Notes: generated from the sequence alone by a model not told the origin. 64,000 bases of DNA from Mobula hypostoma (GCF_963921235.1 NC_086107.1:96412001-96476000); one strand, 5' to 3'. Positions 3,001 to 34,500 are shown, numbered from the stretch's first letter. Numbers and translations: made by a program.

Positions 3001-3612
3001 ATGATATTTTTGATATTATTTCAACTGTCTTGAATATTGATTTACAACCTCATCCTATTACTGCCATCTTTGGTTTACCAATGATAGAAAAACATCATTT
3101 GACCTCTTCAGCTTGTCAGATGATTGCTTTTGTTACTCTAATGGCTAGAAGATCTATACTATTGAATTGGAAAGAGATTAGTCCTCCAAATACATTTCAT
3201 TGGTTTTCTCAAACTATATCTTGCTTAAATCTAGAAAAAAATTAGAAGTGTCATTTATGACTCATCTATTAAATTTGATGAGACTTGGAGACTATTTATT
3301 CAATATTTCCACATGATGTAAAAGCCCTTTTTCTTTCCCTTAGTTTTCTTTTAGTTTGGGTAGATTAGTTTTTTTTCCTAAGGGGATATATTTTTATTCT
3401 TTTTCTGTTTTTTTATGATATTTTTGTATTTTAGGTATACCCTTTATATATTTTATTGTTAATTTGTGAGATTTTGGGAGGTTTACTAATTATGTGTTAC
3501 CTGACTGTATACTTTTATAATATAATTATTAATTAATACAATCCCAATCGCTCTGTATTTATTTTTTGTAATGTGTATGATGTTGAAACTAATAAAAAGA
3601 TTTAAAAAGAAA
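1..3612 (+). mobile_element. Degenerate L1 LINE (ORF2 EN-RT-CCHC with frameshifts, 3' UTR); runs off the window start and is inserted in a Gypsy pol
   Basis: ORF pieces SGKSPDPDGYTAEF, DQTGFIK, ISLDAEK, YADD-coding TATGCAGATGAT (~1627) and CDRCHSEIASLTRMFWSC. AT-rich 3' UTR with AATAAA and an A-rich tail at ~3591-3612. Homologous to the L1 at 29963-35638. Confidence 0.92.
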
Positions 3613-12675: not shown

Positions 12676-13703
12676 TATAATGGTTTATCACCTTTCATTT
12701 TTGCATTGGCTAAGTGTTAAACATGCTGTACTTCTGTGTCTTCCAATAGGCCCTCCCTTATCTCAAGAACTTGCCTCACCTTGGTATAATACAGTAAATC
12801 CCCGGGTTAAGAATATCCAACTTACAGACAACTCGTACTTACGGACTGCCATAAAGCCTATTATATTAAAAATTTGAGTTACATACAATGGTTCGTAACA
12901 ATGAACGCACGCACTACTTTGTGACGCTCATGAAAACATTGCGCGGCTTCAGCGGTTTGTCTGCTCGCGGAAGGAGAACGCTGTCTGCCATTTTAAATTG
13001 GATCACGTTGCTGTTAACAATGTTGAGTGTGTAATTTTGTATTTGGCATAAATTTTTCTCTTATTTACCCTCGTAACCATGCCTTCAAAACATAAATCCG
13101 ATGCAAGTGCTGGTGATGCATCAAAGAAAAGGAAAACGATCACGATTGAAAATAAAGTGGAAATAATAAAGCGATCAGAAAGAGGTGGAACGCCATCGGT
13201 CATTGGAAAAGCATTAAGCTACAGTCGGAACAATTTTAAAGGCCATGCCCCGATGAAAGCTACAATTATTACTAAGCAACGCAGTGGTTTAATTATTGAA
13301 ATGGAAAGGCTATTGATAATTTGGTTAGATGATCAAAATCAGCGTAATATGCTTATTTAGCCTTACTTTAGTGCAAGAAAAGGATCAAAGCCTTTTCAAT
13401 GATTTAAAAGCTGCACGTGCAGCAAGTGAAGATGATTGTGATGAAGAATTTGTTGCTAGTAGGGGTTGGTTCAATCGTTTCAAAGTGAGGGCAAATTCAC
13501 ATAATATTAAAGTGCAAGGTGAAGCAGCGAGTGCTCATGTAAGTGCTGCGAGTGATTTTCCTGAAATGTTTCAAATAAATTATTAAGGGGGGAGGTGATT
13601 TGCCAGACCAAATATTTAATTTTCACGAGACTGGCTTATTTTGGAAAAAAATGCCTGAAAGGTCCTATAATTTGAAAGAGGAAAAAGGTGCACGAGGGCA
13701 TAA

Positions 13704-14199
13704 CATCTGTCAGACAATGCTGAGGATGTTCTACAAGTCTGTGGTGGCCAGTGCGATCATGTTTGCTGTTGTGTGCTGGGACAGCAGGCTGAGGGTAGCA
13801 GACACCAACAGAATCAACAAACTCATTCGTAAGGCCAGTGATGTTGTGGGGATGGAACTGGACTCTCTGACGGCGCTGTCTGAAAAGAGGATGCTGTCCA
13901 AGTCGCATGCCATCTTGGACAATGTCTCCCATCCACTACATAATGGACTGGTTGGGCACAGGAGTACATTCAGCCAGAGACTCATTCCACCGAGATGCAA
14001 CACTGAGCGTCATAGGAAGTCTTTCTGCTTCTGGCCATCAAACTTTACAACTCCTCCCTTGGAGAGTCAGACACCCTGAGCCAATAGGCTGGTCCTGGAC
14101 TTAGTTCCTGGCGTAATTTACATATTACTATTTAATTATTTATGGTGCAACTGTAACAAAAACCAACTTCCCTCGGGATCAATAAAGTATGACTATGAC
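13704..14199 (+). mobile_element. Rex1/Babar LINE 3' fragment inserted in Tigger
   Basis: NICQTMLRMFYKSVVASAIMFAVVCW...RINKLIRKASDVVG with tail AATAAAGTATGACTATGAC; CATAA is duplicated at the junctions. Confidence 0.8.
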
Positions 14200-14328
14200 C
14201 ATAAGGCATCAAAGGATAGGCTAACGTTATTGCTTGGGGGTAACTCATCTGGGGATTTCAAGCTCAAGCCTTTGCTTGAGAATCGCTCCCTAAATCTGAG
14301 GGCACTTTGCCGTATCATTAAGGCATCA

Positions 14329-14707
14329 GCAGCGAGCACTTTTGTGCAGACAGGACAGCGTGACCAGCCTCCCACGACCAGGAGAGCAGTGCAAGTTGAG
14401 CCAGCCTCTGAGACCGACCTGGGAGCCGGCAGCCTTGACGGAGGCAGTGTGCCAGTGACGTAGGCGCCCATAAGTACGGCCCAACTCCCAGATGATTGGT
14501 GGATCACTAGCAGCTTTACATAGCCTCTGACAAGTTGCACACATGACGGACCAGGTAGGCAACAGCTGTCCAGCACACCCACCCATCCCAGACAACCTAG
14601 GGGAGAGCTGCCAGCGGGCCAGGGCAGCAAGGTCTTTGCCAGGCCTCCTGCTTCAATCTAAACACCAGAGGCTAGGCAGGATGTAGCCGACTCAAGCGTA
14701 TGCCTGC
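14329..14707 (+). mobile_element. Probable 5' UTR and ORF1 start of a Tx1-group element (possibly the head of the third Tx1 copy)
   Basis: Not Tigger sequence. CTTCAATCTAAACACC...AGGATG (14651-14683) resembles CTCCAATCTAACACC...AAGATG, which precedes ORF1 in Tx1 copies 1 and 2. Confidence 0.4.
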
Positions 14708-14759
14708 ATCGCTTCTCGGCCTTTTGGCTAAGATCAAGTGTAGTATCTGTTCTTATCAG
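14708..14759 (+). ncRNA. RNU2: U2 snRNA 5' fragment (nt 1-52), orphan and truncated
   Basis: ATCGCTTCTCGGCCTTTTGGCTAAGATCAAGTGTAGTATCTGTTCTTATCAG matches the conserved vertebrate U2 5' end and includes the branch-point recognition GTAGTA (14740-14745). No U2 3' part was seen in the window. Confidence 0.96.
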
Positions 14760-14864
14760 ACCAGAAGGCGGAGGTGAAGAGTTTGCGCTGACGCAGGGGT
14801 GGATCCTAATGCTGATTGGCCTCCAATCTAACACCCCATACCAGCGACGACAGCAGTGAGGAAG

Positions 14865-16286
14865 ATGGCAGCAGCGAGCAGTGCTCGAGGCCAAGGTATC
14901 AAGAACACTGTCAGGCTGACAGTGCGAGACCGGAACGGGGGCACCGGCTTCACCCGAGAGACCTTCATCCAGAAGGTGTTGATGGAATGCTGCGGATTTA
15001 CGCCTGACGACATCTACTGCGTCCAGGACTTCGCAGATTTTTTCGACGTGACTTTCCGGCAGGCTGCAGGGTGGCAGAAGCTGTACCAGCAGCTTCAGCT
15101 GAAGGGGACAGAGGCGCCGCTGTCGCTGTTGAAAGCACAGGCCCTCTTTGCCACGGCTACCCAGCAGGAACGGACAATCACGGTGCACATGTTCAACCCG
15201 CACGTGCCAGTGGTAGATGTCCTTACATTCCTCGCTCGGTATGTGGAGAGCGTAGGAACGCCAGCAGACGTGAAGGACGGACTGGGAATCTGGACCAGCA
15301 AACGGCAGGTCAAGGTGAAGCTGAGGTTGGACTCCAACGGCGGCGTCATCCACCCCCCCTCCGTCTTCGCCATCGGAGGGAACCGAGGGTACACGGTGTA
15401 CGCGGGGCAACCCAGGGTGTGCCGAAACTGCGGCAAGGCAGGGCACATCGCAGCCCAGTGCAGGGTGGTGATGTGCAAGAACTGCAAAACTGAAGGCCAC
15501 CTGACCAAAGACTGCACGCAGGCCAAGTCCTGCAACCTTTGTGGACAAGACGGCCACCTGTACAGAGCCTGCCCGAGGCGTGGGGGCACCTACGCACAGG
15601 CAACCAGGGGAGGTGCTGGTCCTGAAAGGGCCCAGGCAGTTTCGGACGCCCCTGCCAGCACTGCCGAAGAGGCACCCGACAGGGCGGACGATGAGACCAG
15701 GGAGGAAGGGGCAAGCACCCCGAGACCTGCCACCCCACTGCAGACCCTCCAGGACCAAGCAAACGACGAGCAGGAGTCCATGGAGGAGGGGACAGCTGAG
15801 GTGGAAACGGAATGGAAGGTCGTGAAACGGAAAAAGACCCAAAAGGCGGCGGCCAAGCGACAGAAGGCGGAGCAACGCAAGAAAAGGGCAGGGAACCACA
15901 CAGCCTCTGGTACCCTGTCCTCTTCAGAGGAGGAAGGAGTTGGGGGAGGCCAGCAGCCCCAGCGGAAGAAGCGGCTGGCAGAACAGGTGGAGAGGAGGAG
16001 AGAGGAGGGGGAAAGTCTGCTGGCCACCCCCCAAGTACAGGAGGCGGAGAGCAGCAGACACACCGAGCTCCGGGAATCCGGGAGCAGAGCCACGGTTGGC
16101 ACCCAGCAGCCGGAAGCGGAAGCAGCCCAGGAAGCCAACAACCCCCCGGGCCCAGAACCAGAACGGCCACACACGGAGGAGTACTACCAGCAGTACCTGA
16201 GCCCACAGGAGGTGGAAAACTTCACAAAGGCGGTGGGAATGAAGGCTCAGGATGGCAAGGATGAGGACGGAGTGCAGCCAAAATAA
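14865..16286 (+). CDS. Tx1 ORF1p, gag-like nucleic-acid-binding protein with three CCHC zinc knuckles (intact frame)
   Basis: CRNCGKAGHIAAQC, CKNCKTEGHLTKDC and CNLCGQDGHLYRAC; basic WKVVKRKK stretch; low-complexity C-terminus. Confidence 0.9.
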   Translation: MAAASSARGQGIKNTVRLTVRDRNGGTGFTRETFIQKVLMECCGFTPDDIYCVQDFADFFDVTFRQAAGWQKLYQQLQLKGTEAPLSLLKAQALFATATQQERTITVHMFNPHVPVVDVLTFLARYVESVGTPADVKDGLGIWTSKRQVKVKLRLDSNGGVIHPPSVFAIGGNRGYTVYAGQPRVCRNCGKAGHIAAQCRVVMCKNCKTEGHLTKDCTQAKSCNLCGQDGHLYRACPRRGGTYAQATRGGAGPERAQAVSDAPASTAEEAPDRADDETREEGASTPRPATPLQTLQDQANDEQESMEEGTAEVETEWKVVKRKKTQKAAAKRQKAEQRKKRAGNHTASGTLSSSEEEGVGGGQQPQRKKRLAEQVERRREEGESLLATPQVQEAESSRHTELRESGSRATVGTQQPEAEAAQEANNPPGPEPERPHTEEYYQQYLSPQEVENFTKAVGMKAQDGKDEDGVQPK

Positions 16287-16296
16287 AAGACCTACA

Positions 16297-19200
16297 ATGA
16301 TGGCAGACCTTAAATTGGCGTGCTTGAATGTGCGAAGTTTGAAGAGTACTGGGCGATGCGTCAGCACGCTCCAGTACCTGGACACTGTAAAGACCGACGT
16401 GACCTTCCTCCAGGAGTGCGGACTACCACATCTCCGTAACTACCGGAGATGGTCACGGTGGTGGAAAAAAGGTTTGTCTGTGTGGTCGGGGGGCAACGAT
16501 TGTTGCGCTTCCGGCCTGGGGATTCTGCTACGGGGAGGTAACTTCTCAATCACCCAAGTTAAAGAGGTGGTTGCGGGGCGCCTCCTGGTAGCAGACGTCA
16601 AATACCGGGGCACTCCGCTCCGGCTGATCAACGTGTACGCCTCCCCGGTTCGGAGCGAGCGGCTGGCCGTCTTCGAGCAGCTCCCACAGCTGCTGGTGAC
16701 GTCCCAGCCGGTCGTTCTGGCCGGAGACTTCAACTGCACCATTGATGCGGCTGGAGGACCCGGCAGCGCCGACGGCAGGCTGGACAGTACCTCCAGACTC
16801 CTGAGGGAAATAGTAAAGACGGCCAAGCTGCGCGACGCCTTTGGCACCCCCACAGGTGGAGCACGGCCGCAAGCCACCTGGACACGATCGGACGGCTCAG
16901 CCCGCTCCCGGATCGACTTCCTCTTCCTGTCAGAGCCCCTCACGGTCAGGTCCACCGACGTCACGCCGGTGTTCTTCTCTGACCACTGCCTTCTGAGAGC
17001 CACCTGTCTTTTACGGGAGGACCAGAAGGCAGGCAGGGGGACGTGGAAGCTGAATGTTCAGCTGCTGACCCCAGAGAACATCGAGGAACTAGAGAGGGAG
17101 TACACAGGTTGGAGAACCTTGAAAGCCTTCTTTGATTCCCCGGTTCACTGGTGGGAAGCCACCAAAGAGAACATTAAGAGGTTCTTCATCCGCAAGGGTA
17201 TCCAGAAGGCAAGGCAGGAGCAGAGGGAACTGCGTAAACTCCAGACAGAGTTGCAGCAACTTCTCCTTCTGCAGTCGAAGGGGGTGGATGTCAGGGAGGA
17301 ATTGCGAGAGGTGAAGGGCCGGCAAGCCCATAACCTCGCCGCCGAATCCTCCAAGATCATCTTCCGATCAAGGGTCCAAACCGTGGAGCAGGACGAGACG
17401 TGCTCACGCTTCTTCTTCCAAAAGGTGCACAGGGGGAGCTCTGTGATCCACAACCTTAAGGAAGAGGACGGCTCAGTCGCGTCCTCGCAGACCGACATAC
17501 TGAGGATCTGCAAGTCCTTCTATGCCGGTCTGTACGACGAAAAGGCCACAGAATCCACAGCCTCCCGCAACTTCCTGTCGTCTATCACGCAGGTCTTAGA
17601 CGGCGGCAAGCGGGAGAGTCTGGATCAGCCACTGACCCTGGACGAGCTGACAGGCTCCATCCGTTCCTTTGGGTCGGGTAAGACTCCCGGAAGCGACGGC
17701 TTACCGGCTGAGTTGTACTCGGCTCTGTGGAACTGGATAGGCCCAGACCTGCTGGAAGTGTACAATGCTATGCTTCTGGCCGGCAGTATGTCTGAGTCCA
17801 TGAGGAAGGGCATCATCACCCTCATCTACAAGCAGAAGGGGGAAAGAGAGGACATTAGAAATTGGAGACCCATCTCTCTCCTGAATGTGGACTACAAGAT
17901 CCTGTCCAAGGCTATCGCCAACAGGGTCAAGTCTGCTCTGGGACAGGTGATCCACCCAGACCAAACCTGTGCTGTACCAGGCAGGAAGATCTCAGACAGC
18001 CTCGCGCTGCTGAGGGACACCATCGCCTACGTGCAGGACAGGAGGGTGGACGCCTGCCTGGTCAGCTTGGACCAGGAGAAAGCCTTCGACAGGATATCGC
18101 ACACGTACATGGCGGACGTGCTCTCCAAAATGGGATTTGGGGAGGGAATCCGGAATTGGATCAGACTGCTCTACACAGACATCCGTAGTGCAGTCCAGGT
18201 CAACGGGTGGGAAACAGACAGCTTCCCCATCAGGTCTGGAGTCAGGCAGGGCTGTCCCCTCTCCCGTCTTGTTTGTCTGCTGCATAGAACCCTTTGCGGA
18301 AGCCATTAGGAGGGATGAGGGCATAAGAGGGGTGACGCTGCCAGGCAGTGGAGGGACCCAAGTGAAAACCTCCCTGTGCATGGACGACGTCACCGTCTTC
18401 TGCTCTGATCCGAGGTCAGTTCGCAGGTTGATTGGCACCTGCGAACAGTTCGAGCTAGCGTCGGGGGCCAGGGTCAACCGCACGAAGAGCGAAGCCATGC
18501 TCTTCGGCAACTGGCCCGACCGATCCAGCGTCCCCTTCAACATCAGGTCTGACCACGTGAAGGTGTTGGGGATATGGTTCGGAGGGACGGAGGCGTGCAA
18601 CAAGAACTGGCAGGAGCGGACTGCCAAGGTGAAACAGAAACTGGGACTGTGGGGAGGGCGCTCCCTGTCGATAACGGGCAAGAACCTGGTCATCAGGTGT
18701 GAGGTGCTCTCAGGGCTGCTGTACTTGGCGCAGGTCTGGCCCGTCCCCCGCTCCTACAGCTCGGAAATCACCCGGGCTGTCTTCAGATTCGTCTGGGGAT
18801 CCAAGATGGAGCGGGTGGGACGGACCGCCATGCACAAGTCCCTGGACAACGGGGGCAAGAACGTCCCCAATGTCGCCCTCACCCTGATGGCCAGTTTCGT
18901 ATGTGGCTGCATCAGGTTGTGTGTAGAGCCCAGGTATGTGGGCACCAAGTACCGCTACGTGCCCAGGTTCTACTTGTCGCCCTGGCTACGAAGGATGGGT
19001 CTGGCCCCACTCCCGCGCAACACCCCAGTCAGCTGGTCGCTGCCGGCATACCTGTCCTACGTAGCAAAGTTCTTCCAGGAGAACGCCTTTGACCACAGGG
19101 CCATCAGGCAGTGGTCGGCACGTAGTGTCCTGCAGGCACTGCACGAGAAGGACGTGATGGACACAGTGGGGTGGTTCCCTGAGCAGACTGTCCAGTTCAT

Positions 19201-19708
19201 CTGGCAAAATGCCTCATCGCCAGATCTAACCAACAGGCACCAAGACCTCGCCTGGCTGGCGGTGAGAGGGGCCCTCCCAGTCAGAGCCCTCCTGTACGCC
19301 CGGAACGTCGTCTCCGCACCCCACTGCCCACGGGAGGACTGCAGTGAGGAGGAGTCTGTGACCCACCTCTATGCACACTGCCAGTTCGCAAAGAGGGTGT
19401 GGAGGAGGATGGACGGGCTAGTGTCACGGTTTATCCCCAGCAGCTGCGTAACAGAGGACTCTCTGATCTACGGGCTGTTCCCGGGGACACACACGGTTAC
19501 CAACGTCCGGTGCTGCTGGCAGATCATCAACTCGGTGAAAGATTCTATTTGGTCGGCCCGAAACTTGATGATCTACCAGCACATGGAGATGTCCGTGGGA
19601 GAATGCTGCCGACTGGCACATTCTCGACTGCAGGAGTACGTGCTGAGGGACGCACTGAAACTCGGTGCAGCCACCGCAAGGGCCCGGTGGGGAAGGACCA
19701 CAGTATAG
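16297..19708 (+). pseudogene. Tx1 ORF2 (APE endonuclease, RT, C-terminal Cys/His domain) with one 2-bp frameshift at ~18265 and YMDD changed to CMDD
   Basis: ORFs 16252-18309 and 18137-19708: LNVRSL, FLQEC, LAGDFN, SRIDF, FSDH, LDQEKAFDR, GVRQGCPLS, CMDD, CPREDC..EESVTHLYAHC. Confidence 0.92.
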
Positions 19709-19944
19709 GTTTCTCCACCCGTGGGAGTGGGAGGGGTCGGAGGGCGGGGAGTATACCCCTCAACAATGAAATGATATGGTAAGCTGAACTACTGGAGTGC
19801 CACGTGGGTGGCTATAAATACGGATATGTACTGTGTATAATGCAAACGTATGTAAAGGATGAAAAGTTATTGAATGGTTTATTGTATATATTTATTTTTG
19901 AATAAAGTATATTTTGAAATTAAAAAAAAATCTGTTCTTATCAG

Positions 19945-22900
19945 ACCAGAAGGCGGAGGTGAAGAGTTCGCGCTGACGCAGGGGTGGATCCTAATGCTCA
20001 TTGGCCTCCAATCTAACACCCCATACCAGCGACGACAGCAGTGAGGAAGATGGCAGCAGCAAGCAGTGCATCGGCTCGAGGCCAGGGTATCAAGAACACT
20101 GTCAGGCTGACAGTGCGAGACCGGAACGGGGGCACCGGCTTCAACCGAGAGACCTTCATCCAGAAGGTCATGATGGAACGCTGCGGATTTACGCCCGACG
20201 ATATCTACTGCGTCCAGGACTTCGCAGGTTTCTTCGATGTCACTTTCCGGCAGGCTGCAGGGTGGCAGAAGCTGTACCAGCAGCTTCAGCTGAAGGGGAC
20301 AGATGCGCCGCTGTCACTGCTGAAAGCACAGGTCCTCTTTGCAACGGCTACCCAGCAGGAACGGACAATCACGGTGCACATGTTCAACCCGCACGTGCCA
20401 GTGGTAGATGTCCTTACATTCCTCGCTCGGTATGTGGAGAGCGTAGGAACACCAGCAGACGTGAAGGACGGACTGGGAATCTGGACCAGCAAACGGCAGG
20501 TCAAGGTGAAGCTGAGGTTGGACTCCAACGGCGGTGTCATCCACCCCCCCTCCGTCTTCGCCATCGGAGGGAACCGAGGGTACACGGTGTACGCGGGGCA
20601 ACCCAGGGTGTGCCGAAACTGCGGCAAGGCAGGGCACATCGCAGCCCAGTGCAGGGTGGTGATGTGCAAGAACTGCAAAACCTAAGGCCACCCAACCAAA
20701 GACTGCACGCAGGCCAAGTCCTGCAACCTTTGTGGACAAGCCGGCCACCTGTACAGAGCCTGCCCGAGGCGTGGGGGCACCTACGCACAGGCAACCAGGG
20801 GAGGTGCTGGCCCTGAAAGGGCCCAGGCAGTTTCGGACGCCCCTGCCAGCACTGCAGAAGAGGCACCCGACAGGGCGGACGATGAGACCAGGGAGGAAGG
20901 GGCAAGCACCCCGAGACCTGCCACCCCACTGCAGACCCTCCAGGACCAAGCAAACGACGAGCAGGAGTCCATGGAGGAGGGGACAGCTGAGGTGGAAACG
21001 GAATGGAAGGTCATGAAACGGAAAAAGACCCAAAAGGCGGCGGCCAAGCGACAGAAGGCGGAGCAACGCAAGAAAAGGGCAGGGAACCACACAGCCTCTG
21101 GTACCCTGTCCTCTTCAGAGGAGGAAGGAGTTGGGGGAGGCCAGCAGCCCCAGCGGAAGAAGCGGCTGGCAGAACAGGTGGAGAGGAGGAGAGAGGAGGG
21201 GGAAAGTCTGCTGGCCACCCCCCAAGTACAGGAGGCGGAGAGCAGCAGACACACCGAGCTCCGGGAATCCGGGAGCAGAGCCACGGTTGGCACCCAGCAG
21301 CCGGAAGGGGAAGCAGCCCAGGAAGCCAACAACCACCCCGGGCCCAGAACCAGAACGGCCACACACGGAGGAGTACTACCAGCAGTACCTGAGCCCACAG
21401 GAGGTGGAAAACTTCATGAAGGCTCAGGATGGCAAGGATGAGGACGGAGAGCAGCCAAAATAAAAGACCTACAATGATGGCAGACCTTAAATTGGCATGC
21501 TTGAATGTGCGAAGTTTGAAGAGTACTGGGCGATGCGTCAGCACGCTCCAGTACCTGGACACTGTAAAGACCGACGTGACCTTCCTCCAGGAGTGCGGAC
21601 TACCACACCTCCGTAACTACCGGAGGTGGTCACGGTGGTGGAAAAAAGGTTTGTCTGTGTGGTCGGGGGGCAACGATTGTCGCGCTTCCGGCCTGGGGAT
21701 TCTGCTACGGGGAGGTAACTTCTCAATCACCCAAGTTAAAGAGGTGGTTGCGGGGCGCCTCCTGGTAGCAGACGTCAACCGAAGTTAAAGAGGTGGTTGC
21801 GGGGCCCCTCCTGGTAGCAGACGTCAAATACCGGGGCACTGCGCTCCGGCTGATCAACGTGTACGCCTCCCCCGTTCGGAGCGAGCGGCTGGCCGTCTTC
21901 GAGCAGCTCCCATAGCTGCTGGTGACATCCCAGCCGGTCGTTCTGGCCGGAGACTTCAACTGCACCATTGATGCGGCTGGAAGACCCGGCAGCACCGACG
22001 GCAGGCTGGACAGTACCTCCAGACTCCTGAGGGAAATAGTAAAGACGGCCAAGCTGCGCGACGCCTTTGGCACCCCCACAGGTGGAGCACAGCCGCAAGC
22101 CACCTGGACACGATCGGACGGCTCAGCCCGCTCCTGATCGACTTCCTCTTCCTGTCGGAGTCCCTCACGGTCAGGTCCACCGACGTCACGCCAGTGTTCT
22201 TCTCTGACCACTGCCTTCTGAGAGCCACCTGTCGTTTACGGGAGGACCAGAAGGCAGGCAGGGGGACGTGGAAGCTGAATGTTAAGCTGCTGACCCCAGA
22301 GAACAGCGAGGAACTAGAGAGGGAGTACACAGGTTGGAGAACCTTGAAAGCCTTCTTCGATTCCCCGGTTCACTGGTGGGAAGCCACCAAGGAGAACATT
22401 AATAGGTTCTTCATCCGCAAGGGTATCCAGAAGGCAAGGCAGGAGCAGAGGGAACTGCGTAAACTCCAGACAGAGTTGCAGCAATTTCTCCTTCTGCAGT
22501 CGAAGGGGGTGGATGTCAGGGAGGAATTGCGAGAGGTGAAGGGCCGGCAAGCCCATAACCTCGCCGCCAAATCCTCCAAGATCATCTTCCGATCAAGGGT
22601 CCAAACCGTGGAGCAGGACGAGACGTGCTCACGCTTCTTCTTCCAAAAGGTGCACAGGGGGAGTTCTGTGATCCACAACCTTAAGGAAGCGGACGGCTCA
22701 GTCGCGTCCTCGCAGACCGATATACTGAGGATCTGCAAGTCCTTCTATGCCGGTCTGTACGACGAAAAGGCCACAGAATCCACAGCCTCCCGCAACTTCC
22801 TGTCGTCTATCACGCAGGTCTTAGACGACGGCAGGCGGGAGAGTCTGGATCAGCCACTGACCCTGGACGAGCTGACAGGCTCCATCCGTTCCTTTGGGTC

Positions 22901-25160
22901 GGGTAAGACTCCCGGAAGCGACGGCTTACCGGCTGAGTTGTACGCGGCTCTGGGGAACTGGATGGGCCCAGACCTGCTGGAAGTGTACAACGCTATGCTT
23001 CTGGCCAGCAGTATGTCTGAGTCAATGAGGAAGGGCATCATCACCCTCATCTACAAGCAGAAGGGGGAAAGGGAGGACATTAGAAATTGGAGACCCATCT
23101 CTCTCCTGAATGTGGACTACAGGAGCCTGTCCAAGGCTATCGCCAACAGGGGCAAGTCTGCTCTGGGACAGGTGATCCACCCAGACCAAACCTGTGCTGT
23201 ACCAGGCAGGAAGATCTCAGACAGCCTCGCGCTGCTGAGGGACACCATCACCTACGTGCAGGACAGGAGGGTGGACGCCTGCCTGGTCAATTTGGACCAG
23301 GAGAAAGCCTTCGACAGGATATCGCACACGTACATGGCGGACGTGCTCTCCAAAATGGGATTTGGGGAGGGAATCCGGAATTGGATCAGACTGCTCTACA
23401 CAGACATCCGTAGTGCAGTCCAGGTTAACAGGTGGGAAACAGACAGCTTCCCCATCAGGTCTGGAGTCAGGCAGGGCTGTCCCCTCTCCCCTGTCTTGTT
23501 TGTCTGCTGCATAGAACCCTTTGCAGAAGCCATTAGGAGGGATGAGGGCATAAGAGGGGTGACGCTGCCAGGCAGCGGAGGGACCCAAGTGAAAACCTCC
23601 CTGTACATGGACGACGTCACCGTCTTCTGCTCTGATCCGAGGTCAGTTCGCAGGTTGATTGGCACCTGCGAACAGGTCGAGCTAGCGTTGGGGGCCAGGG
23701 TCAACCACACGAAGAGCGAAGCCATGCTCTTCGGCAACTGGCCCGACCGATCCAGCGTCCCCTTCACCATCAGGTCTGACCACGTGAAGGTGTTGGGGAT
23801 CTGGTTCGGAGGGGCGGAGGCGTGCAACAAGAACTGGCAGGAGCGGACTGCCAAGGTGAAACAGAAACTGGGACTGTGGGGAGGGCGCTCCCTGTCGATA
23901 ACGGGCAAGAACCTGGTCATCAGGTGTGAGGTGCTCTCAGGGCTGCTGTACTTGGCGCAGGTCTGGCCCGTCCCCCGCTCCTACAGCTCGGAAATCACCC
24001 GGGCTGTCTTCAGATTCTTCTGGGGATCCAAGATGGAGCGGGTGGGACGGACCGCCATGCACAAGTCCCTGGACAACGGGGGCAAGAACGTCCCCAATGT
24101 CGCCCTCACCCTGATGGCCAGCTTTGTATGTGGCTGCATCAGGTTGTGTGTAGAGCCCAGGTATGTGGGCACCAAGTACCACTATGTGCCCAGGTTCTAC
24201 TTGTCGCCCTGGCTACGAAGGATGGGTCTGGCCCCACTCCCGCACAACGCCCCAGTCAGCTGGTCGTTGCCGGCATACCTGTCCTACGTAGCAAAGTTCT
24301 TCCAGGAGAACGCCTTTGACCACAGGGCCATCAGGCAGTGGTCGGCACGTAGTGTCCTGCAGGCACTGCAGGAGAAGGACGTGATGGACACAGTGGGGTG
24401 ATTCCCTGAGCAGACTGTCCAGTCCATCTGGCAAAATGCCTCATCGCCAGATCTAACCAACAGGCACCAAGACCTCGCCTGGCTGGCGGTGAGAGGGGCC
24501 CTCCCAGTCAGAGCCCTCCTGTGCGCCCGGAACGTCGTCTCCGCACCCCACTGCCCACGGGAGGACTGCAGTGAGGAGGAGTCTGTGACCCACCTCTTTG
24601 CACACTGCCAGTTCGCAAAGAGGGTGTGGAGGAGGATGGACGGGCTAGTGTCACCGTTTATCCCCAGCAGCTGCCTAACAGAGGACTCTCTGATCTACGG
24701 GCGGTTCCCGGGGACACACATGGGGACCAACGTCCGGTGCTGCTGGCAGATCATCAACTCGGTGAAAGACGCTCTTTGGTCGGCCCGAAACTTGATGATC
24801 TACCAGCACATGGAGATGTCCGTGGGAGAATGCAGCCGACTGCCACATTCTCGGCTGCAGGAGTACGTGCTGAGGGACGTACTGAAACTCGGTGCAGCCA
24901 CCGCAAGGGCCCGGTGGGGAAGGACCACAGTATAGGTTTCTCCACCCGTGCGATTGGGAGGGGTCGGAGGGAGGGGAGTATACCCCTCAACAATGAAATG
25001 ATATGGTAAGCTGAACTACTGGAGTGCCACGTGGGTGGCTATAAATACGGATATGTACCGAGTATAATGGAAACGTATGTAAAGGATGAAAAGTTCTTGA
25101 ATGGTTTATTGTATATATTTATTTTTGAATAAAGTATATTTTGAAATTAAATAAAAAAAA
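19945..25160 (+). mobile_element. Keno-like Tx1 retrotransposon, copy 2 (full length, several stops and frameshifts)
   Basis: Nearly identical to copy 1 from ACCAGAAGGCGG to the poly(A). Stops at 20683 and 24399, a ~46-bp tandem duplication at 21733-21827, YMDD intact. Confidence 0.93.
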
Positions 25161-28100
25161 TCTCTTCCCATTAGGGGTCGCAGGAGAGAACAGTTACGGT
25201 ACACATGCTTAATCCCTATGTACCGGTCGTCGACGTTCTCACTTTTCTAGCACGTTATGTGGAGAGAGTGTGGAGGTGTGAGGACGTTGACGAAATTCTG
25301 GAGGTTTGGACATCTAATCGGCTGGTCAGGGTTAAGTTAAGGACGGACACCAATGGCTGTGTCATCCACCCACCCTCCGTCTTTGCGATAGGAGGGAACC
25401 GGGGCTACCTGGTTTACGCCGGACAACCGAAACTGCGCCGAAACTGCGGCAAGGCAGGGCACATCACGGCCCAGTGTAAGGCTGTGGTGTGCAGAAATTG
25501 CAAGGTGGAGGGACACCTTACCAAAGACTGCATGGAGGCCAAATCCTGCAACCTCTATGGGCAGGCGGGCCACCTTTATAGGACCTGTCCGAAACGGGTG
25601 GGCTCCTATGCACAGGTGGCCAGGGGTAGTGATGACATCGGGATAGCCCCAGCTGGAGTGGAGGTGCCCGCCGTCTCTGTAGAGGAGATGTAGGTTGCGA
25701 TGGAGGGACAAGAGCCCAGCCTGGGCTCCCCCTCCACCTTGCAGGACACCCAATACCCCCCGCTTGATGAGGGTTCAATGGAAGAGGGGAGGGCCGAGGG
25801 GGAAGAGGAAAAGTGGAGGGTGGTCACAAAACGAAAAAAGACCCTAAAGATGCCGCCAAAAAGACAAAGGGCGGAGAAATTGGAGAGCTCTAAAAAGAGA
25901 GAGGTTGAGCATCACTCGTCCTCTGAGCACCTGTCTTCCTCGGAGGAGGGCGGTGGGGGTGGCCAGAAACCCCGACAGAGGAAGAGGCGGGTTAATCGGG
26001 CAGAGGAGAGTCAGGGGAAGAGTGAAGGTCTGCTAGCCACCCCCCAGTCGCAGGATGGGGGGATCAGCAGAGTCTCTCAGCTCCGGGAATCCGGGAGCAG
26101 TCATACTTCTGGTGGTCTGCAGCCAGATGGAGGGGCGCCCCTGGAGGTTCCATTTGGTGCCGAACCAGTGGCGCCCCTCCCTGGCAGGGAGTACCAGCAG
26201 TACCTGAACCCTCAGCAGGTGGAAGACTTCACCAGGACTGTGGGGATGAGGCCTCCAGACGGGAAAGAAGAGAACGAGGATTTATAAAAGGTGATGGACC
26301 TTAAACTGGCATCTTTAAACCTTCGCAGTGTGAAGAGTACTGGGCGTTGCGTCAGCACGCTTCGGTACTTGAACACTGTGAACGCCAACGTGACCTTCCT
26401 GCAGGAGTGCGGTCTGCCGCACCTCAGGAGTTATCGACGGTGGTGGTCCCAGGGTTTGTCGGTGTGGTCGGGGGGCAACGATGGTCACGCTTCCGGCCTG
26501 GGGATTCTGCTGCGGGGAGGCAACTTCTCAATCACCCAAGTTAAAGAGGTGGTTGCGGGGCGCCTCCTGGTAGCAGACGTCAAATACCGGGACACACCAC
26601 TCCGGCTGATCAACGTGTACGCCTCCCCCGTTCGGAGCGAGCGGCTGGCCATCTTCGAGCAGCTCCCAAAGCTGCTGGTGACGTCCCAGCCGGTCATTCT
26701 GGCCGGAGACTTCAACTGCACCATTGATGCGGCTGGACGACCCAGCAGCACCGACGGCAGGCTGGACAGTACCTACAGACTCCTGATGGAAACTGTAAAG
26801 GCAGCCAAGCTGCGCAACGCCTGTGGCACCCCCACAGGAGGAGCACAGCCGCAAGCCACCTGGACACGATCGGACGGCTCAGCCCGCTCCTGGATCGACT
26901 TCCTCTTCCTGTCAGAGTCCCTCACGGTCAGGTCCACCGACATCACGCCGGTGTTCTTCTCTGACCACTGCCTTCTGAGAGCCACCTGTCGTTTACGGGA
27001 GGACCAGCAGGCAGGCAGGGGGACGTGGAAGCTGAATGTTAAGTTGCTGACCCCAGAGAACATCGAGGAACTAGAGAAGGAGTACACAGGTTGGAGAACC
27101 TTGAAAACCTTCTTTGATTCCCCGGTTCACTGGTGGGAAGCTACCAAGGAGAACATTAGGAGGTTCTTCATTCGCAAAGGTATCCAGAAAGCAAGGCAGG
27201 AGCAGAGGGAACTGCGTAAACTCCAGACAGAGTTGCAGCAACTTCTCCTACTGCAGTCGAAGGGGGTGGATGTCAGGGAGGAACTGCGAGAGGTGAAGGG
27301 CCGGCAAGCCCAGCACCTCGCCGCCGAATCCTCCAAGATCATCTTCCGATCAAGGGTCCAAACCGTGGAGCAGGACGAGACGTGCTCACGCTTCTTCTTC
27401 CAAAAGGTGCACAGGGGGAGCTCTGTGATCCACAACCTTCAGGAAGAGGACGGCTCAGTCGCATCCTCGCAGACCGACATACTGCGGATCTGCAAGTCCT
27501 TCTATGCCGGTCTGTACGACGAAAAGGCTACAGAATCCACAGCCTCCCGCAACTTCCTGTCGTCTATCACGCAGGTCTTAGACGACAGCAAGCGGGAGAG
27601 TCTGGATCAGCCACTGACCCTGGACGAGCTGACAGGCTCCATCCGTTCCTTTGGGTCGAGTAAGACTCCCAGAAGCGATGGCTTACCGGCTGAGTTGTAA
27701 TCGGCTCTGTGGAACTGGATGGGCCCAGACCTGCTGGAAGTGTACAACGCTATGCTTCTGGCGGGTAGCATGTCTGAGTCCATGAGCAAGGGCATCATCA
27801 CCCTCACCTACAAGCAGAAGGGGGAAAGGGAGGACATTAGGAATTGGAGACCCATCTCTCTCCTGAATGCGGATTACAAGATCCTGTCCAAGGCTATCGC
27901 CAACAGGGTCAGGTCAGCTCTGGGACAGGTGATTCATCCAGACCAAACCTGTGCTGTACTGGGCAGGAAAATCTCAGACAACCTCACGCTGCTGAGGGAC
28001 ACCATTGCCTACGTGCAGGACAGGAGGGTGGACGCCTGCCTGGTCAGCTTGGACCAGGAGAAAGCCTTCGACAGGATATCGCACACGTACATGGCGGACG

Positions 28101-29962
28101 TGCTCTCCAAAATGGGATTTGGGGAGGGAATCCGGAATTGGATCAGACTGCTCTACACAGACATCCGTAGTGCAGTGCAGGTCAACGGGTGGGAAACCGA
28201 CTGCTTCCCCATCAGGTCTGGAGTCAGGCAGGGCTGTCCTCTCTCCCGTCTTGTTTGTGTGCTGCATAGAACCCTTTGCGGAAGCCATCAGGAGGGATGG
28301 GGGCATAAGAGGGGTGACGCTGCCAGGCAGTGGAGGGACCCAAGTGAAAACCTCCCTGTACATGGACGACGTCACCGTCTTCTGCTCTGATCCGCGGTCA
28401 GTTCACAGGTTGATTGGCACCTGCGAACAGTTCGAGCTTGCGTCGGGGGCCAGTCTCAACCGCACGATGAGCGAAGCCATGCTCTTCGGCAACTGGCCAG
28501 ACCGATCCAGCGTCCCCTTCACCATCAGGTCTGACCACACGAAGGTGTTGGGGATCTGGTTCGGAGGGGCTGAGGCGTGCAACAAGAACTGGCAGGAGCG
28601 GACTGCCAAGGTGAAACAGAAACTGGGACTGTGGGGAGGGCGCTCCCTGTCGATAACAGGCAAGAACCTGGTCATCAGGTGTGAGATGCTCTCAGAGCTG
28701 CTGTACTTGGCGCAGGTCTGGCCCGTCCCCCGCTCCTACAGCTCGGAAATCACCCGGGCTGTCTTCAGATTCGTCTGGGGATCCAAGATGGAGCGGGTGA
28801 GACGGACCGCCATGCACAAGTCCCTGGACAATGGGGGCAAGAACGTCCCCAATGTCGCCCTCACCCTGATGGCCAGCTTCGTGTGTGGCTGCATCAGGTT
28901 GTGCATGGATCCCAGATACGTGGGCACAAAGTACTACTATGTGCCTAGGTTTTACCTGTCGCCCTGGCTACGAAGGATGGGTCTGGCTTCTTTCCCGCGC
29001 AACACCCCTGTCAGCTGGTCGTTGCCCCCTTACCTGTCCTTCGTAGAAAAATTCTTCAAGACCAACACATTTGACCACAGGGCCATTAGACAGTGGTCGG
29101 CACGTAACGTCCTGCAGGCACTGCAGGAGAAGGACGTGATGGACACAGTGGGGTGGTTCCCTGAGCAGACTGTCCAGTTCATCTGGCAAAATGCCTCATC
29201 GCCAGATCTCAGCAACAGGCACAAAGACCTAGCCTGGCTGGCGGTGAGAGGGGCCCTCCCAGTCAGATCCCTCCTGTACGCCCGGAACAGTTCCTCCACA
29301 CCCCGTTGCCCACGGAAGGACTGTAATGGGGTGGACTCGGTGGCTCACCTCTTTGCACACTGTGGGTTCGCAAAGAAGGTGTGGAAGGCACAGTACTAAG
29401 ATTCATGCCCAGCAGCTGCGTAACAGAGGACTCTCTGATCTATGGGCTGTTCCCGGGGACGCACACGGAGACAAACATCCGGTCCTGCTGCCAGATCATC
29501 AATTCGGTGAAAGACGCTCTTTGGTCAGCCCGAAACTTGATGGTCTGCCAGCAGATGGAGATGTCCGTGATTCAATGCTGCAGACTGGCTCACTCTCGTC
29601 TGCAGGAGTCCGTGCTGAGGGATGCACTCAAACTTGGTGCGGCCACCACGAAGGCCCAGTGGGGAAGGACCACAGTTTAACGTTCATCACCCGTAGGAGG
29701 GGGAGAGGTTGGGTGGGGAGGAGACCTACCCTCATCAGCGGTGTGGACAGATAATCAACATGGTGCCCAAGGAGTGGGTGGAATTGTTAATTTGGGAAAG
29801 TATTAGAGCCATTGCCTGCCTTTATTGTTGATAATTTGATTGTTAATAAGTTTTAACTCTTGACCAAGGGTTGAGAGTAAACGCATGATTTATTGTAAAC
29901 ATCTTTCATTTGTAAATGAACAGAGTCAACGCAAAATTTTTATTGTTAATAACTGTATTGAA

Positions 29963-30809
29963 ACCTCCGGTTAAACCGAAAGCTACGGATTTCCCCCCGA
30001 CTGAATCACCGGTGACTTTGAAAGCGATATCGGAGTTAATTCAGAGGGAAATTTCAACCTCTGTTAGGGAGATGATTCGTACGGAAATTGCAGGCTCTGT
30101 TAAAGACCTGATTCATACGGAAATCTCAACTAATTTCCAGAAAATTGCCGATTCAATGGATAAGATGCAAACATTTATTGCGGAACATCAGTCGGCTATA
30201 TCTGATCTTCAAAAATTCGTGCAACAAAGTGAGCTTAAGATGGGGAAAATCGAAGAAACAATTAATGTAATGAAGAAGAAACTTGACTTTTTGACTTTTA
30301 AAAACTCTGACTTGGAATCTAGAATGCGACGGCAGAATTTACGAATGATCGGGGCGAGGGAAGCTGTTGAATCCAACAACCCCATGAAATATTTTTCTCA
30401 ACTTTTAAAAGATGCATTCCCTACTGTATTTCCTGACCAACCACCGCTTCTGGATCGTGTTCACAGAATCCCATCATACTCGTCTAGGTCAGATAGACCT
30501 AGGCATGTTATTTTACGTTTTCATTATTTTCAAGACAAGGAGAGACTGTTTCGATTCGCTCGATCTAAAGGTTTCATTGATTTTTCGGATCTTAAGTTCC
30601 GATTCGTGGAAGATTTCAGTAAACCAATCTGGGACCAACAGGTTCGTTACAGATCCGTGATGTCGGAATTCTATAAGATGGATTTAAGACCAGCGCTGCT
30701 GTACCCTGCACGTCTAAGGATTCGCATGTCAGATGGAGCCCTTCGTTTTTTTGATTCTCCATCGGATGCCCAGAGTTATATGGATCAACTTTCATCTTCA
30801 ACATCTTAA
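29963..30809 (+). CDS. L1 ORF1p (coiled coil, RRM, CTD), N-terminus truncated at the insertion point
   Basis: DLESRMRRQNLRMIG, LDRVHRI, PRHVILRF, RFVEDFS and LLYPARLRI are typical L1 ORF1p motifs. Confidence 0.85.
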
Positions 30810-31527
30810 TTGCCTTTTTTTAATTATCTCCGTTGGATCGGAGGCTGTGAATTGGTTGGTTTTAACTTTTTCGTGCCCTATCTGGGCAGAAAAGTTTATT
30901 TTTGATTTCTTAATATGGTTGCTAAACTTTCTTTTTAACTGCGTCATTTCTTTCTTTTCCCAGGGGATTCTGGGTGGTTACTTCCCTTTTGTCATCTTAC
31001 GTATTTCCTGTGTGGCCTTAAATTTTGTAGTTTTTTTTAAATTTTATTCTGTTTTGCTTTTTATAACCACTTTATGTCCATAATCCTATTTTTTCTTGTT
31101 GCTGTGTCTATTCATGGGTTTGAGGTTTATTGTGGTTTTTTTTAATATATATTTTCCGGCTTTTGTTCTGTTCTGTGTGTATTTTAATTGAGCTAACTTT
31201 TTTTTTTACTTACTTTTTTACTGTTTTACAATTAGCTGATCCTTTTCATATTTATACCTTTTTTTTTTAGGGAGCGTATACCGGAAGTCATGGGGGTAGT
31301 TTTAGCGCTTGCTTCTCTCTGGCGGGTCTGCTTTAGATTTTGCCTTGGGGTCTTGGGGCGGTGGGAGGGGCTTCACGTTTTAGTTTGTTTCTCTTTGGGC
31401 TATATACATTATTGAAGTACTGGTTGCGTCCTTTTTCCCGGTATCTTTTGTATGTTCTGTTTCCTCTCCGGGTTTGTGGGTCGCGCCTATCGTCAATCCT
31501 CCTTGTTGTGGGTTGACTTTAGGATTT

Positions 31528-34500
31528 ATGGAGTCTATTATTAATTTTGTCTCCTGGAATACTAATGGTCTTAATCATCCTATTAAAAGGAAAAAAGTTT
31601 TTAAAGTGTTCCGGAGACTTAAAGCACAAATTTTATTTTTACAAGAGACCCATGTACGGAGGGGGGACAGACTACGTTTTTTCAAATTCTGGAAGGGACA
31701 ACAATTTCATTTGAACTCCAATGCTAAGATTCGAGGTGTCTCTATTTTTATAGATTCCTCAGTTACTTTTATACAACAGGATATTATCTCTGATCCGAAT
31801 GGTGGATTTTTATTGGTTAGTGGTTTACTATTTAATAAAAAAGTAGTTTTGGTTAATGTTTATGCTCCTAATATGGATTGTCCGGAATTTTATAAATCAT
31901 TGTTTGATCAGTTTCCGAATTTGAACGAGTTTTCATTGATCTGGGGCGGAGATCTTAATACCTGTTTGTCTCCAGCTTTGGACCGTTCGGCTCCTTTACG
32001 GACTTTACCTAATAAATCTGCAAATCTGATTAATTTTTTCCTTTCTGATTCTGGGTCGACGGACATTTGGCGTTTTCTGCATCCTCAGGAAAAAGATTTT
32101 TCCTTCTTTTCACATGTTCATCATTCCTATTCAAGAATTGATTATTTTTTCATTGATTCTCGTCTTATTCCTTCAGTGATTAAATGTGATTATGATTCTA
32201 TAACCATTTCGGATCATGCTCCACTTAAGCTTTCTATTAAAATTATGGCCAATATACCAAATAATAGACAATGGTGTTTTAATTCGCTGTTGCTTCAGGA
32301 CTCGGACTTTGTTAATTTTATGAATGAACAGATTGAGCTTTTTTTTACAATTAACCATACAGAAGATATTTCGGTTAACACTCTTTGGGACACTTTTAAA
32401 GCCTATATTCGGGGTCAGATTATTTCGTATTCTGTTGCTTTGAGGAAGAAACAGAAGCAGGAGGAGATGGCAATTGTGGACAAGATTAAAGAAATTGATA
32501 AGAAATATGTTATGGCTCCTTCTGAGGAGTTATACAAACAAAGAACTGAACTTCAAATGGAACACAGTTTACTACTCTCGTCCTCGATTGTAAACCAATT
32601 AAAGAAAACAAGAAGTGACTTTTATGTTCACAGTGACAAAATTGGCAAGCTGCTGGCTAATCAATTGAAATCTAATTATGTTAAATCTCAAATCAATCAG
32701 ATTTATAACCAAAATGATCGATTGATATTGGATCATGTGGGGATTAATCAAACCTTTTGTGATTTTTATTCTTCTTTATATCAATCAGAGTCTCCTCGAG
32801 ATTCTAAATATATGAATGATTTTTTAGATAAGTTAGACTTCCCTCAGATTTCACAGGATATGTCTTCTTTATTAGATACTTCCATTACAATGGATGAGAT
32901 TAAGAATGTTATTTTTTCTATGAATCTGGGGAAAGCTCCTGGCCCTGATGGGTTTACCGTTGAATTTTATAAATGTTTTGCTTCTTTATTGATTCCTTGG
33001 CTCTGTAAGGTTTTTGAGGCTTCTTTGAAACTTGGTAAACTTCCTGAATCTTTTAATAGAGCATCAATTTCTCTAATACTAAAGAAGGATAAAGACCCTG
33101 CTCAATGTGCATCTTATAGACCAATATCTTTATTAAATGTTGATTCTAAAGTTTTTTCTAAGTTATTAGCAAATAGACAAGAAAAAGTACTTCCTTCTAT
33201 TATTTCGGAAGACCAAACGGGTTTTATTAAAGGTCGTTACTCTTTTTATAATATTCGTACATTGTTAAATATCGTTTATACTCCCTCACAAAATGTTCCT
33301 GAGTGTGTTATTTCTTTAGATGCCGAGAAAGCTTTTGATAGAGTAGAATGGCCTTATTTATTTAAGGTGCTTGAAATGTTTAACTTTAGCTTGAAATTTA
33401 TATCCTGGATTAAACTGTTATATCACTCCCCTGTAGCCTCGGTTCGTACTAACTCTTTAAACTCACCTTTTTTTCCTCTCTTTCATGGTACTCGACAAGG
33501 CTGTCCTCTTAGTCCCCTATTATTTGATATTGCATTAGAACCTCTTGCAATTGCTATTCGAGAATCTTCAAATATTACTGGGATAACTCGGGGATTAAAG
33601 TCCCATAAATTATCACTCTATGCTGATGATTTACTTTTATATATTTCTAATCCTGAGAGATCCATTCCTGCTGTTTTAGAGTTATTAGCACAATTTGGTC
33701 TTTTCTCAGGTTATAAATTAAATCTTAGTAAGAGTGAACTTTTTCCGATTAATAAACATCTTCCCTTATATTATAAATTTCCATTTAAATTGATTAATAA
33801 TTACTTTTCATATCTTGGGATTAAAATTACTTGTAAATACAAAGATTTATTTAAGACTAACTTTTTACCATTAATAGACCATATTACTCAACTTTCATCT
33901 AAATGGTTTCCCTTATATTTAACTTTGATTGGTCGTATTAATGCAGTTAAGATGTTTTTTTTGCCAAAATTTTTATATGTGTTTCAGGCATTACCAATTT
34001 TCGTTCCCAAATCTTTTTTTGATAAAGTTGACTCTAAAATTTCTTCATTTATTTGGCAGAATAAGAATCCGAGACTGGGTAAAATACATTTACAGAAAGC
34101 TAAGAGAGATGGAGGTTTAGCACTACCTAACTTTAGATTCTATTATTGGGCTATTAATATTCGACATATGAAATTTTGGTTACTTGACCAGGACATACTA
34201 CCTATTCCTAAATGGGTAGCATTGGAATTACAATCTGTTCAGGGTTATACACTTGGTTCTATTTTAGGCTCCTCTCTCCCTTTTGATTCGAATCGTCTTA
34301 AGCAGGTCTCTAACCCGATAGTTAAATATGCTTTGCGCATTTGGTTTCAATTCAGAAAATTTTTTGATCTTAATCAATTCGGGTTAGCGATTCCTATTTT
34401 AGGTAATATATTTTTTCCTCCCTCTTTTACGGATCGCGCTTTTCAAACTTGGAAGACTAAGGGTATTTTACGGTTTTTGGATTTATTTTTAGATGGTTCC

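Follow-up and report, generated by a model that had tools for sequence, protein, structure and literature searches.

Age order in a stack of putative Keno-type LINEs behind an ectopic U2 leader in the Mobula hypostoma genome

Two described groups of long interspersed elements (LINEs) insert into U2 small nuclear RNA (snRNA) genes, and both bear on the DNA analysed here, a window of 64,000 nucleotides (nt) from Mobula hypostoma (GCF_963921235.1 NC_086107.1:96412001-96476000) in which three head-to-tail LINE copies lie behind the start of a U2 sequence. Keno comprises Tx1-clade LINEs of the apurinic/apyrimidinic endonuclease (AP or APE) type that insert specifically into U2 snRNA genes (Kojima and Fujiwara 2004, cited in PMC4640811, PMC4494074, and PMC6136364). 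Its 3′ junction in U2, TCTGTTCTTATCAGTTTAAT, is placed 37–38 nt into U2 (PMC6136364; the site is given also in PMC4640811 and PMC4494074) and is the same 3′ target as that of the window element; Keno further resembles the window element in its AP-type endonuclease and reverse transcriptase (RT), its poly(A) tail, and its vertebrate hosts. Utopia comprises U2-specific LINEs of the restriction-like endonuclease (RLE) type, and its 3′ junction in U2 is likewise that of the window element; Utopia-1_NVit is described as 'occasionally inserted in tandem in U2 genes', and weakened Utopia families land at U2-like sites such as TCTGTTCTT, according to the relevant passages of PMC4640811. Utopia has a single open reading frame (ORF) with a restriction-like (PD-(D/E)xK) endonuclease C-terminal to the RT, whereas the window element has an N-terminal AP-type endonuclease and two ORFs, and an assignment to Utopia was ruled out on these grounds.

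Precedents also exist for tandem insertion and for the transport of target or flanking sequence. Tandem SINEU-3 copies 'sandwiching a TSD' (target-site duplication) in the DNA transposon Mariner-N4_AMi have been attributed to sequential insertion by Tx1-type machinery (PMC4494074). They resemble the window in having head-to-tail copies with one TSD between them, a re-used site, and a DNA transposon as target, but they are short interspersed elements (SINEs) of crocodilians, and the passage that describes them contains neither an age order nor a target sequence borne on the RNA (PMC4494074). Co-transcription with the target gene is known from target-specific LINEs such as R2 (cited in PMC4494074), and the window element is like them, as that passage presents them, in that the target promoter is used and a precise 5′ junction is helped by target sequence that the RNA carries at its 5′ end. 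It differs from R2-type elements in that the co-transcript would start at a Pol II snRNA promoter and in that dispersed copies keep the leader. Source-locus flank is carried to new sites by L1 5′ and 3′ transduction and by template-switch chimeras. The window shares with these a moved source flank of 370 nt and, at the 5′ junction, 11 nt of element sequence as filler, and U6/L1 chimeras are among the cases cited in PMC4494074; in contrast to L1 transduction, the flank here is an snRNA gene promoter region and the insertion site is a sequence-specific pseudo-target, not an L1-type TTTT/AA site. The Keno family, its site, tandems that sandwich a TSD, and Utopia tandems in U2 genes are already known from the cited passages (PMC4494074, PMC4640811). 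The portions of the literature that were searched name no Keno of this host and hold no description of polarised stacks, of a contrast between flank-bearing and bare leaders, or of a retrocopy of an snRNA promoter, although the print record on Keno leaders and tandems may be wider; a demonstrated polarity, the contrast between the two kinds of leader, and a retrocopy carrying an snRNA promoter region may therefore be new.

The window contains a pile of 21.4 kb at one U2-like pseudo-target inside a pogo/Tigger-like DDE_1 transposon, in which a U2 upstream flank and leader are followed by three LINE copies that become older with distance from the leader. The explanation that we favour, and hold with moderate confidence as a whole, is that a Keno-type LINE, Tx1-like with an APE-type endonuclease, a poly(A) tail, and U2 snRNA genes as its target, makes up the repeated unit and that its copies were inserted serially, copy 1 entering at this locus. 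An initial annotation of the same DNA had described two units and a leader at an ectopic locus. The ectopic placement agrees with the surrounding DDE_1 transposon, and the two units and leader are present; the description was incomplete in that it missed the third copy, a nested LINE, 370 nt of U2 flank, and the pseudo-target in the DDE_1 transposon. The features of the pile, in window coordinates, are as follows.

14182-14327, + strand: left flank, remnant of a pogo/Tigger-like DNA transposon with 3′ end ...AAGGCATC (matches to paralogs stop at 14327)
14328-14337, + strand: 10-nt filler at the 5′ junction (sequence reading)
14338-14707, + strand: upstream flank (promoter region) of a U2 repeat unit, 370 nt, at an ectopic site (match to array unit)
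14708-14759, + strand: leader, U2 snRNA nt 1-52 (Rfam; comparison with an intact array gene)
14746-14759, + strand: site and TSD TCTGTTCTTATCAG, the final 14 nt of the leader (U2 nt 39-52)
14760-19930, + strand: copy 1, putative Keno-type LINE, its A9 tail adjoining the 14-mer (Pfam domains, frames, trees)
14865-16286, + strand: copy 1 ORF1, open, 473 amino acids (aa) (frame reading)
16252-18309 plus 18380-19708, + strand: copy 1 ORF2, with one frameshift near 18265 (frame reading)
19931-19944, + strand: second 14-mer (U2 nt 39-52), the TSD that separates copies 1 and 2 (exact match)
19945-25160, + strand: copy 2, same family, older layer, with an A-rich tail (alignment, trees)
25161-25173, + strand: TCTCTTCCCATTA, 5′ copy of the 13-bp TSD of copy 3, pseudo-target in the DDE_1 transposon (12/13 match with 35740-35752)
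25173-29962, + strand: first part of copy 3, of an older related subfamily, 5′-truncated within ORF1 (alignments of relatives)
29963-35639, + strand: young full-length LINE inside the 3′ untranslated region (UTR) of copy 3 (Pfam; own TSD)
35640-35739, + strand: last part of copy 3, the remaining 3′ UTR and an A9 tail (continuity in relatives)
35740-35752, + strand: TCTCTTCCCGTTA, 3′ copy of the 13-bp TSD of copy 3, host transposon sequence (junction reading)
35753-36572, + strand: right flank, where the pogo/Tigger-like transposon continues (DDE_1 match at 35779-36069; paralogs)

Rfam places U2 at 14708-14839 (66.8 bits), and the 52 nt at 14708-14759 are identical to the start of an intact array U2 gene. 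Exact occurrences of TCTGTTCTTATCAG in the window number two, at 14746 and 19931, against 0.05 expected. Alignment and reading frames confirmed the tandem arrangement first noted, with an intact ORF1 and a single ORF2 frameshift in copy 1 and several stops and indels in copy 2. The ORF2 break of copy 1 is a 2-nt length difference at element nt 3506, relative to copy 2 and another full copy; copy 2 has one stop in ORF1, private among the 13 copies compared, one stop in ORF2, and indels of +1, −15, +49 (an internal duplication), and −1. A third head-to-tail unit, the oldest of the three, directly follows copy 2. In Pfam searches, ORF1 of the element contains two ZCCHC3-type RNA-binding domains and CCHC knuckles, and ORF2 matches Exo_endo_phos (E 3e-14), RVT_1 (E 1e-21), and zf-RVT (E 3e-9). 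Over 96% of its length, the ORF2 product shares 38% identity with a zebrafish protein that carries the NCBI name 'transposon TX1 uncharacterized 149 kDa protein'; its identity to the other LINE resident in the window is 27%. As a separate observation, ORF1 of copy 1 (14865-16286) matches both RNA-binding domains of vertebrate ZCCHC3 (PF23057, E 6e-14; PF23058, E 4e-26), which would fit a shared origin of the ZCCHC3 host gene and LINE ORF1 proteins of this kind.

A 2.74-kb tandem array that holds the real U2 genes lies 0.2-0.3 Mb upstream of the window, on the same contig. A pattern spanning the boundary between flank and U2 recovered 29 native-flank U2 starts, all on the window's contig: 21 intact, 6 occupied within the array, 1 heading a minus-strand array, and 1 in the window, which makes 8 occupied. 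At six loci, occupied U2 genes read U2(1-52)-element-An-TCTGTTCTTATCAG-TTTAAT..., with the junction TCTGTTCTTATCAGTTTAATATC. The 14-mer, which the initial annotation had set apart as a piece of its own after U2 nt 1-38, is the ordinary 14-bp TSD of the U2 site and corresponds to U2 nt 39-52. One dispersed copy is flanked by a 14-bp TSD with an unrelated sequence, and the 14-nt stagger is therefore a property of the element. One occupied U2 unit (G000:C45:96192789-96200382) measures about 7.4 kb from the leader to the 3′ half of U2, as against 5.16 kb elsewhere, and so holds an extra 2.2 kb.

The leader-to-element 5′ junction, after U2 nt 52, is found at 37 places genome-wide, and here the element departs from Keno as the cited sources describe it: 30 of the 37 junctions lie on other contigs, outside U2 genes, with U2 nt 1-52 as a 5′ leader. 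Among 20 dispersed 5′ ends that were read, 8 coincide with U2 nt 1 and 14 fall in nt 1-3, in unrelated flanks, and none of the 20 extends upstream of U2 nt 1. Given these 5′ ends, source copies in U2 genes appear to be transcribed from the U2 start site, yielding an RNA that begins with U2 nt 1-52; a full-length RNA of this kind would recreate a perfect site at its 5′ junction, in keeping with the earlier proposal that the element carries its own target site.

Relative ages were estimated from trees and pairwise counts, not from a family consensus. The 5′ tree was built from 1450 nt and 36 rows, with duplicate places and matches shorter than 1000 nt dropped; array copies entered the comparisons with the parts on either side of their middle 2 kb. 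This tree has a ladder-like topology in which copy 1 falls in the youngest clade (11 rows; Shimodaira–Hasegawa-like approximate likelihood ratio test [SH-aLRT] support 97), together with array copies and three dispersed copies, and copy 2 falls outside that clade, among older dispersed copies; copy 1 ends on a branch of 0.0045 and copy 2 on one of 0.014. In the 3′ tree (19 rows), copy 1 again groups with array copies (support 93) to the exclusion of copy 2, with copy 3 as outgroup. Counted against a young array copy, substitutions rise from 18/1587 (1.1%) in copy 1 to 41/1612 (2.5%) in copy 2 and 135/1423 (9.5%) in copy 3. The prediction that copy 1 would be less diverged than copy 2 thus held in both trees and in the pairwise counts, and the order in the DNA, read from the leader, is youngest (copy 1), older (copy 2), and oldest (copy 3). 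Because copies 1 and 2 are non-sisters in both trees and copy 3 belongs to another subfamily, the three copies appear to derive from separate source RNAs with no local duplication.

The direction of growth is demonstrated directly not in the window, where no later event duplicating sequence made by an earlier one was found, but in a U2 gene on C122, where new copies entered the stack on the leader side. Five stacked pieces there have divergences, from 5′ to 3′, of 3/592, 1/334, 0/87, 10/389, and 34/1122 (0.5%, 0.3%, 0%, 2.6%, and 3.0%). The three young pieces lack a 33-nt gap relative to a young array reference; the two old pieces have it, as do copies 1 and 2. Both old pieces are preceded at their junctions by the 13-mer TCTGTTCTTCAAT, the final CAAT of which stands where U2 has ATCA and where 23 other copies read GGAG, GGTT, or similar; CAAT consists of an extra C and the first three bases of the distal piece. 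The TSD of the proximal piece thus duplicates 13 nt of the distal junction, and the proximal piece must therefore have entered later and on the leader side. These earlier-junction bases, together with the ordered ages in the window and on C122, bear out the initial suggestion that such an array grows with its newest unit beside the leader. Two further stacks weakly suggest the same polarity: in a dimer at 96210846 the leader-side copy is identical to array singles and the second copy sits on a branch of 0.003, and in a pair on C184 the divergences are 0/163 and 3/649. No stack with the reverse age order was found among those examined. Considered by itself, the 33-nt difference is a usable subfamily marker: the 33 extra nt of the 3′ UTR (window 19770-19810) are present in copies 1 and 2 and the two old C122 pieces, and absent from the array reference L071, from the end of unit X of the X/Y pair at 96223935, and from the young C184 and C122 pieces (L071, L062, and L092 were compared).

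At its outer edges the pile interrupts a single transposon. Of the 14 paralogs that the right flank recovered, 13 join the sequence ending at 14327 directly to the sequence that begins after 35739, the two matches overlapping by 3 nt, and 35779-36069 in the right flank matches DDE_1 (PF03184, E 5e-12); Pfam gave no match in the 48-aa left flank or in an ORF at 13651-14079. The empty site reads ...AAGGCA|TCTCTTCCCGTTATTTGG and agrees with the U2 site at 8 of 14 positions. Copy 3 is bounded by a 13-bp TSD (TCTCTTCCCATTA at 25161 and TCTCTTCCCGTTA at 35740, with 12 of 13 positions matching), and its relatives match from 25173 onward only; in ORF2 it shares 92% identity with copy 1 and in ORF1 78%, and its subfamily is older and abundant. 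We considered and ruled out TCTCTTCCCATTAG as a decayed U2 14-mer, as it is duplicated sequence of the host transposon itself. The poly(A) tails of copies 2 and 3 both adjoin TCTCTTCCC(A/G)TTA, and because the tail of copy 2 adjoins the 5′ copy of the 13-mer, the same bond was nicked a second time. The initial annotation had copy 2 arriving first with the U2 leader; copy 2 is indeed older than copy 1, but its leader did not come alone, since it is accompanied by 370 nt of flank and lies at a pseudo-target that copy 3 had already used.

At the left junction, the host transposon (...GGCATC) is followed by the 10-nt filler and then by the U2 flank. The filler and base 14338 together form an 11-mer identical to 14870-14880 of copy 1, at the start of ORF1, and this stretch of element sequence would be a trace of template switching. 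Flank plus leader are 98.6% identical over 422 nt to an array unit, with 6 differences from 26 array units, of which 3 are common to an older peripheral unit; dating of the block by its U2 flank was abandoned, since three private changes in 422 nt could not distinguish the age of copy 1 from that of copy 2.

These observations can be arranged into a proposed history. The endonuclease would nick a U2 gene between nt 38 and 39, with the other strand cut 14 nt downstream, so that U2 nt 39-52 would flank each insertion. After insertion the 5′ junction would keep a complete site (upstream U2 plus TSD), and at the 3′ junction poly(A) would replace U2 nt 1-38; the next insertion would therefore fall at the 5′ junction, and the stack would grow toward the leader with its youngest unit first. 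At the window locus, a 5′-truncated copy 3 of the older subfamily would have entered GGCA|TCTCTTCCCGTTA of the DDE_1 transposon, generating the 13-bp TSD; the same bond would then have been nicked again, with copy 2 entering together with U2 nt 1-52 and 370 nt of upstream flank; copy 1 would next have entered the leader at nt 38/39; and an unrelated LINE would recently have landed in the 3′ UTR of copy 3. If so, the locus is a natural record of a site-specific LINE re-using its own junction, preserving the order of events, a stagger of 13-14 nt, and microhomology at truncated 5′ ends.

The third of these steps, which we infer to have occurred at the window locus rather than at a donor, is where the serial history must be weighed most carefully against arrival of the first two copies on one RNA. 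A dimer formed in the array, with a young copy at the leader and an older one behind it, could have been transcribed from upstream of the U2 start past the first poly(A) signal and reverse-transcribed at the pseudo-target by copy 3, stopping 370 nt upstream of the U2 start. Such a transcript would account for the single poly(A) that ends the block at the pseudo-target, and the 370 nt of flank call for an upstream-begun transcript or a switch to a DNA template for that part in any case, as serial insertion and the dimer both need one or the other; multi-copy units are moreover common in the cluster, at 3 of 7 occupied native-flank units. Yet a dimeric RNA would have to read through a poly(A) signal and be copied in full over about 11 kb, and none of the 20 other dispersed 5′ ends read reaches upstream of U2 nt 1. 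Junctions of the form An-14-mer-element number six genome-wide, all on the window's contig; the five besides the window's belong to the 96210846 dimer, both copies of which are in the youngest clade, and to the old minus-strand array. The assembly therefore contains no donor dimer of the two lineages for the dimeric read-through RNA that the initial annotation had named as its alternative, and dispersed copies show no such junction (0), although 5′-truncated dimeric RNAs would be expected to leave some if they moved often. Serial insertion asks for one further ordinary insertion into a flank-bearing leader, an event seen at three of the seven other such leaders. Private substitutions over about 1640 nt (4 in copy 1, 12 in copy 2) are compatible with both histories. 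We consider arrival on a dimeric RNA possible but doubtful. Duplication of one copy in the DNA, by unequal crossing-over or replication slippage and followed by decay of one product, has a parallel in the minus-strand array, where four junctions share an identical odd tail, TTTTAAAAAA, and units B-E form one tight clade (support 100); in the window, by contrast, the tails of copies 1 and 2 differ, copy 1 is closer to copies in the array or on other contigs (98.6-98.9% identity) than to copy 2 (97.5%), the two are not sisters in either tree, and copy 3 is of another subfamily, which makes this origin very improbable. A single copy written twice by the assembler is less credible still: the two units differ by 117 substitutions in 5155 aligned bases (2.3%) and by 8 indels, divergence that makes an assembly duplication unlikely, and they fall in different clades and are followed by a third copy of another subfamily.

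Several points nevertheless weigh against the serial history or against the naming of the element. The observations are compatible both with a local insertion of copy 1 and with the arrival of copies 1 and 2 on one RNA. The Tx1-clade placement is derived from pairwise identities and a database protein name, not from a tree with reference families. The X/Y dimer at C45:96223935 (junction An-TCTGTTC-GCGCTG...) is identical over 308 nt, so that its polarity is uninformative. The minus-strand array (G000:C45:96255692-96276560; L063-L066 and L091), in which at least 5 Keno units lie behind an older U2 unit, appears, judging from its repeated tail and tight clade, to have grown by DNA duplication and not by serial insertion. 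Its leader-side unit has a mosaic structure, with 92.5% identity to its neighbour over the 5′ 1.3 kb and near identity over the 3′ 1.4 kb, and the array was for this reason dropped as evidence on polarity. Finally, a second insertion was found in none of the 30 flank-less dispersed copies that bear the leader, which also favours the dimeric RNA.

This last result stands in contrast to the native-flank leaders, where four of the eight that are occupied hold more than one copy (the window, the 96210846 dimer, the X/Y pair, and the minus-strand array). The one-sided Fisher probability for 4/8 versus 0/30 is about 0.001, for events that are not fully independent. Because the dispersed leaders were not re-hit, the bare 52-nt leader is insufficient as a target, which the simple model does not predict; the suggestion that ectopic leaders act as a decoy sink sparing U2 genes has no support, and the proposed survey of other ectopic U2-leader loci yielded no polarised arrays, as none of the 30 is multi-copy. 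One possible reading is that the flank, the promoter, or the array neighbourhood matters for targeting; another is that copies 1 and 2 were stacked in the array and then moved together. More specifically, re-targeting may need the U2 promoter flank and not the 52-nt site alone, with the endonuclease complex guided by promoter-bound factors or transcription, such that a promoter-carrying retrocopy would found a new landing locus. We regard this as an unlikely conjecture; if it were true, an occasional promoter-carrying retrocopy, such as the one in the window, would serve beyond the U2 array as a source and landing locus that renews itself. Both the reason for which leaders with the flank alone are re-hit and the route by which the 370-nt flank travelled are inferred here. 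The data show that new insertions are not drawn by the RNA-borne U2 leader on its own and that a rare retrocopy took the snRNA promoter region along, which bears on how target-specific LINEs choose their sites and is relevant to their proposed use in targeted gene delivery.

The young LINE within copy 3 is flanked by its own 11-bp TSD, ACTGTATTGAA, at 29952-29962 and 35640-35650. Its ORF1 (29916-30809, 297 aa, Transposase_22) and ORF2 (31528-35304, 1258 aa, endonuclease plus RT) are both open. For its first 200 nt, 40 places out of 1652 candidates were scored, of which 21 show 100% identity and 18 show 99%, and the family seems to have been active until very recently. In three relatives of copy 3, ...ACTGTATTGAA leads directly into sequence corresponding to 35640-35739. 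A chimeric origin, in which copy 3 and the young LINE would have arrived in a single insertion and their families would share a 3′ tail, was considered and ruled out because copy 3 relatives continue into 35651-35739 and the LINE has its own 11-bp TSD. Two relatives of copy 3 (L093 and L094) carry tandem repeats of about 30 nt (…GGGGAAGAGAGCTG…CGATTC…) upstream of the point at which copy 3 is truncated; these repeats are absent from copy 1. The left arm of the host DDE_1 transposon is interrupted by a LINE-like 3′ fragment at 13651-14170, with a 142-aa ORF in which Pfam gave no match.

A few dispersed insertions provide minor observations on site use. Two 5′-truncated copies of about 100 nt (L011, at C18:131.46 Mb, and L067, on C122) follow An-TCTG-TATAATGC..., the join falling either behind U2 nt 42 or, within the 3′ UTR of the element itself, at a spot that resembles GTA|TCTG. 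The 3′ flanks of dispersed copies start with TCT in 7 of the 18 read, which hints at a weak residual site preference. A dispersed head-to-tail pair with a non-U2 junction (L030, at C22:6559724) consists of a 5′-truncated copy with poly(A), then GCTTGTCTTG, and then a second copy whose leader starts at U2 nt 12; both copies are of similar, intermediate age.

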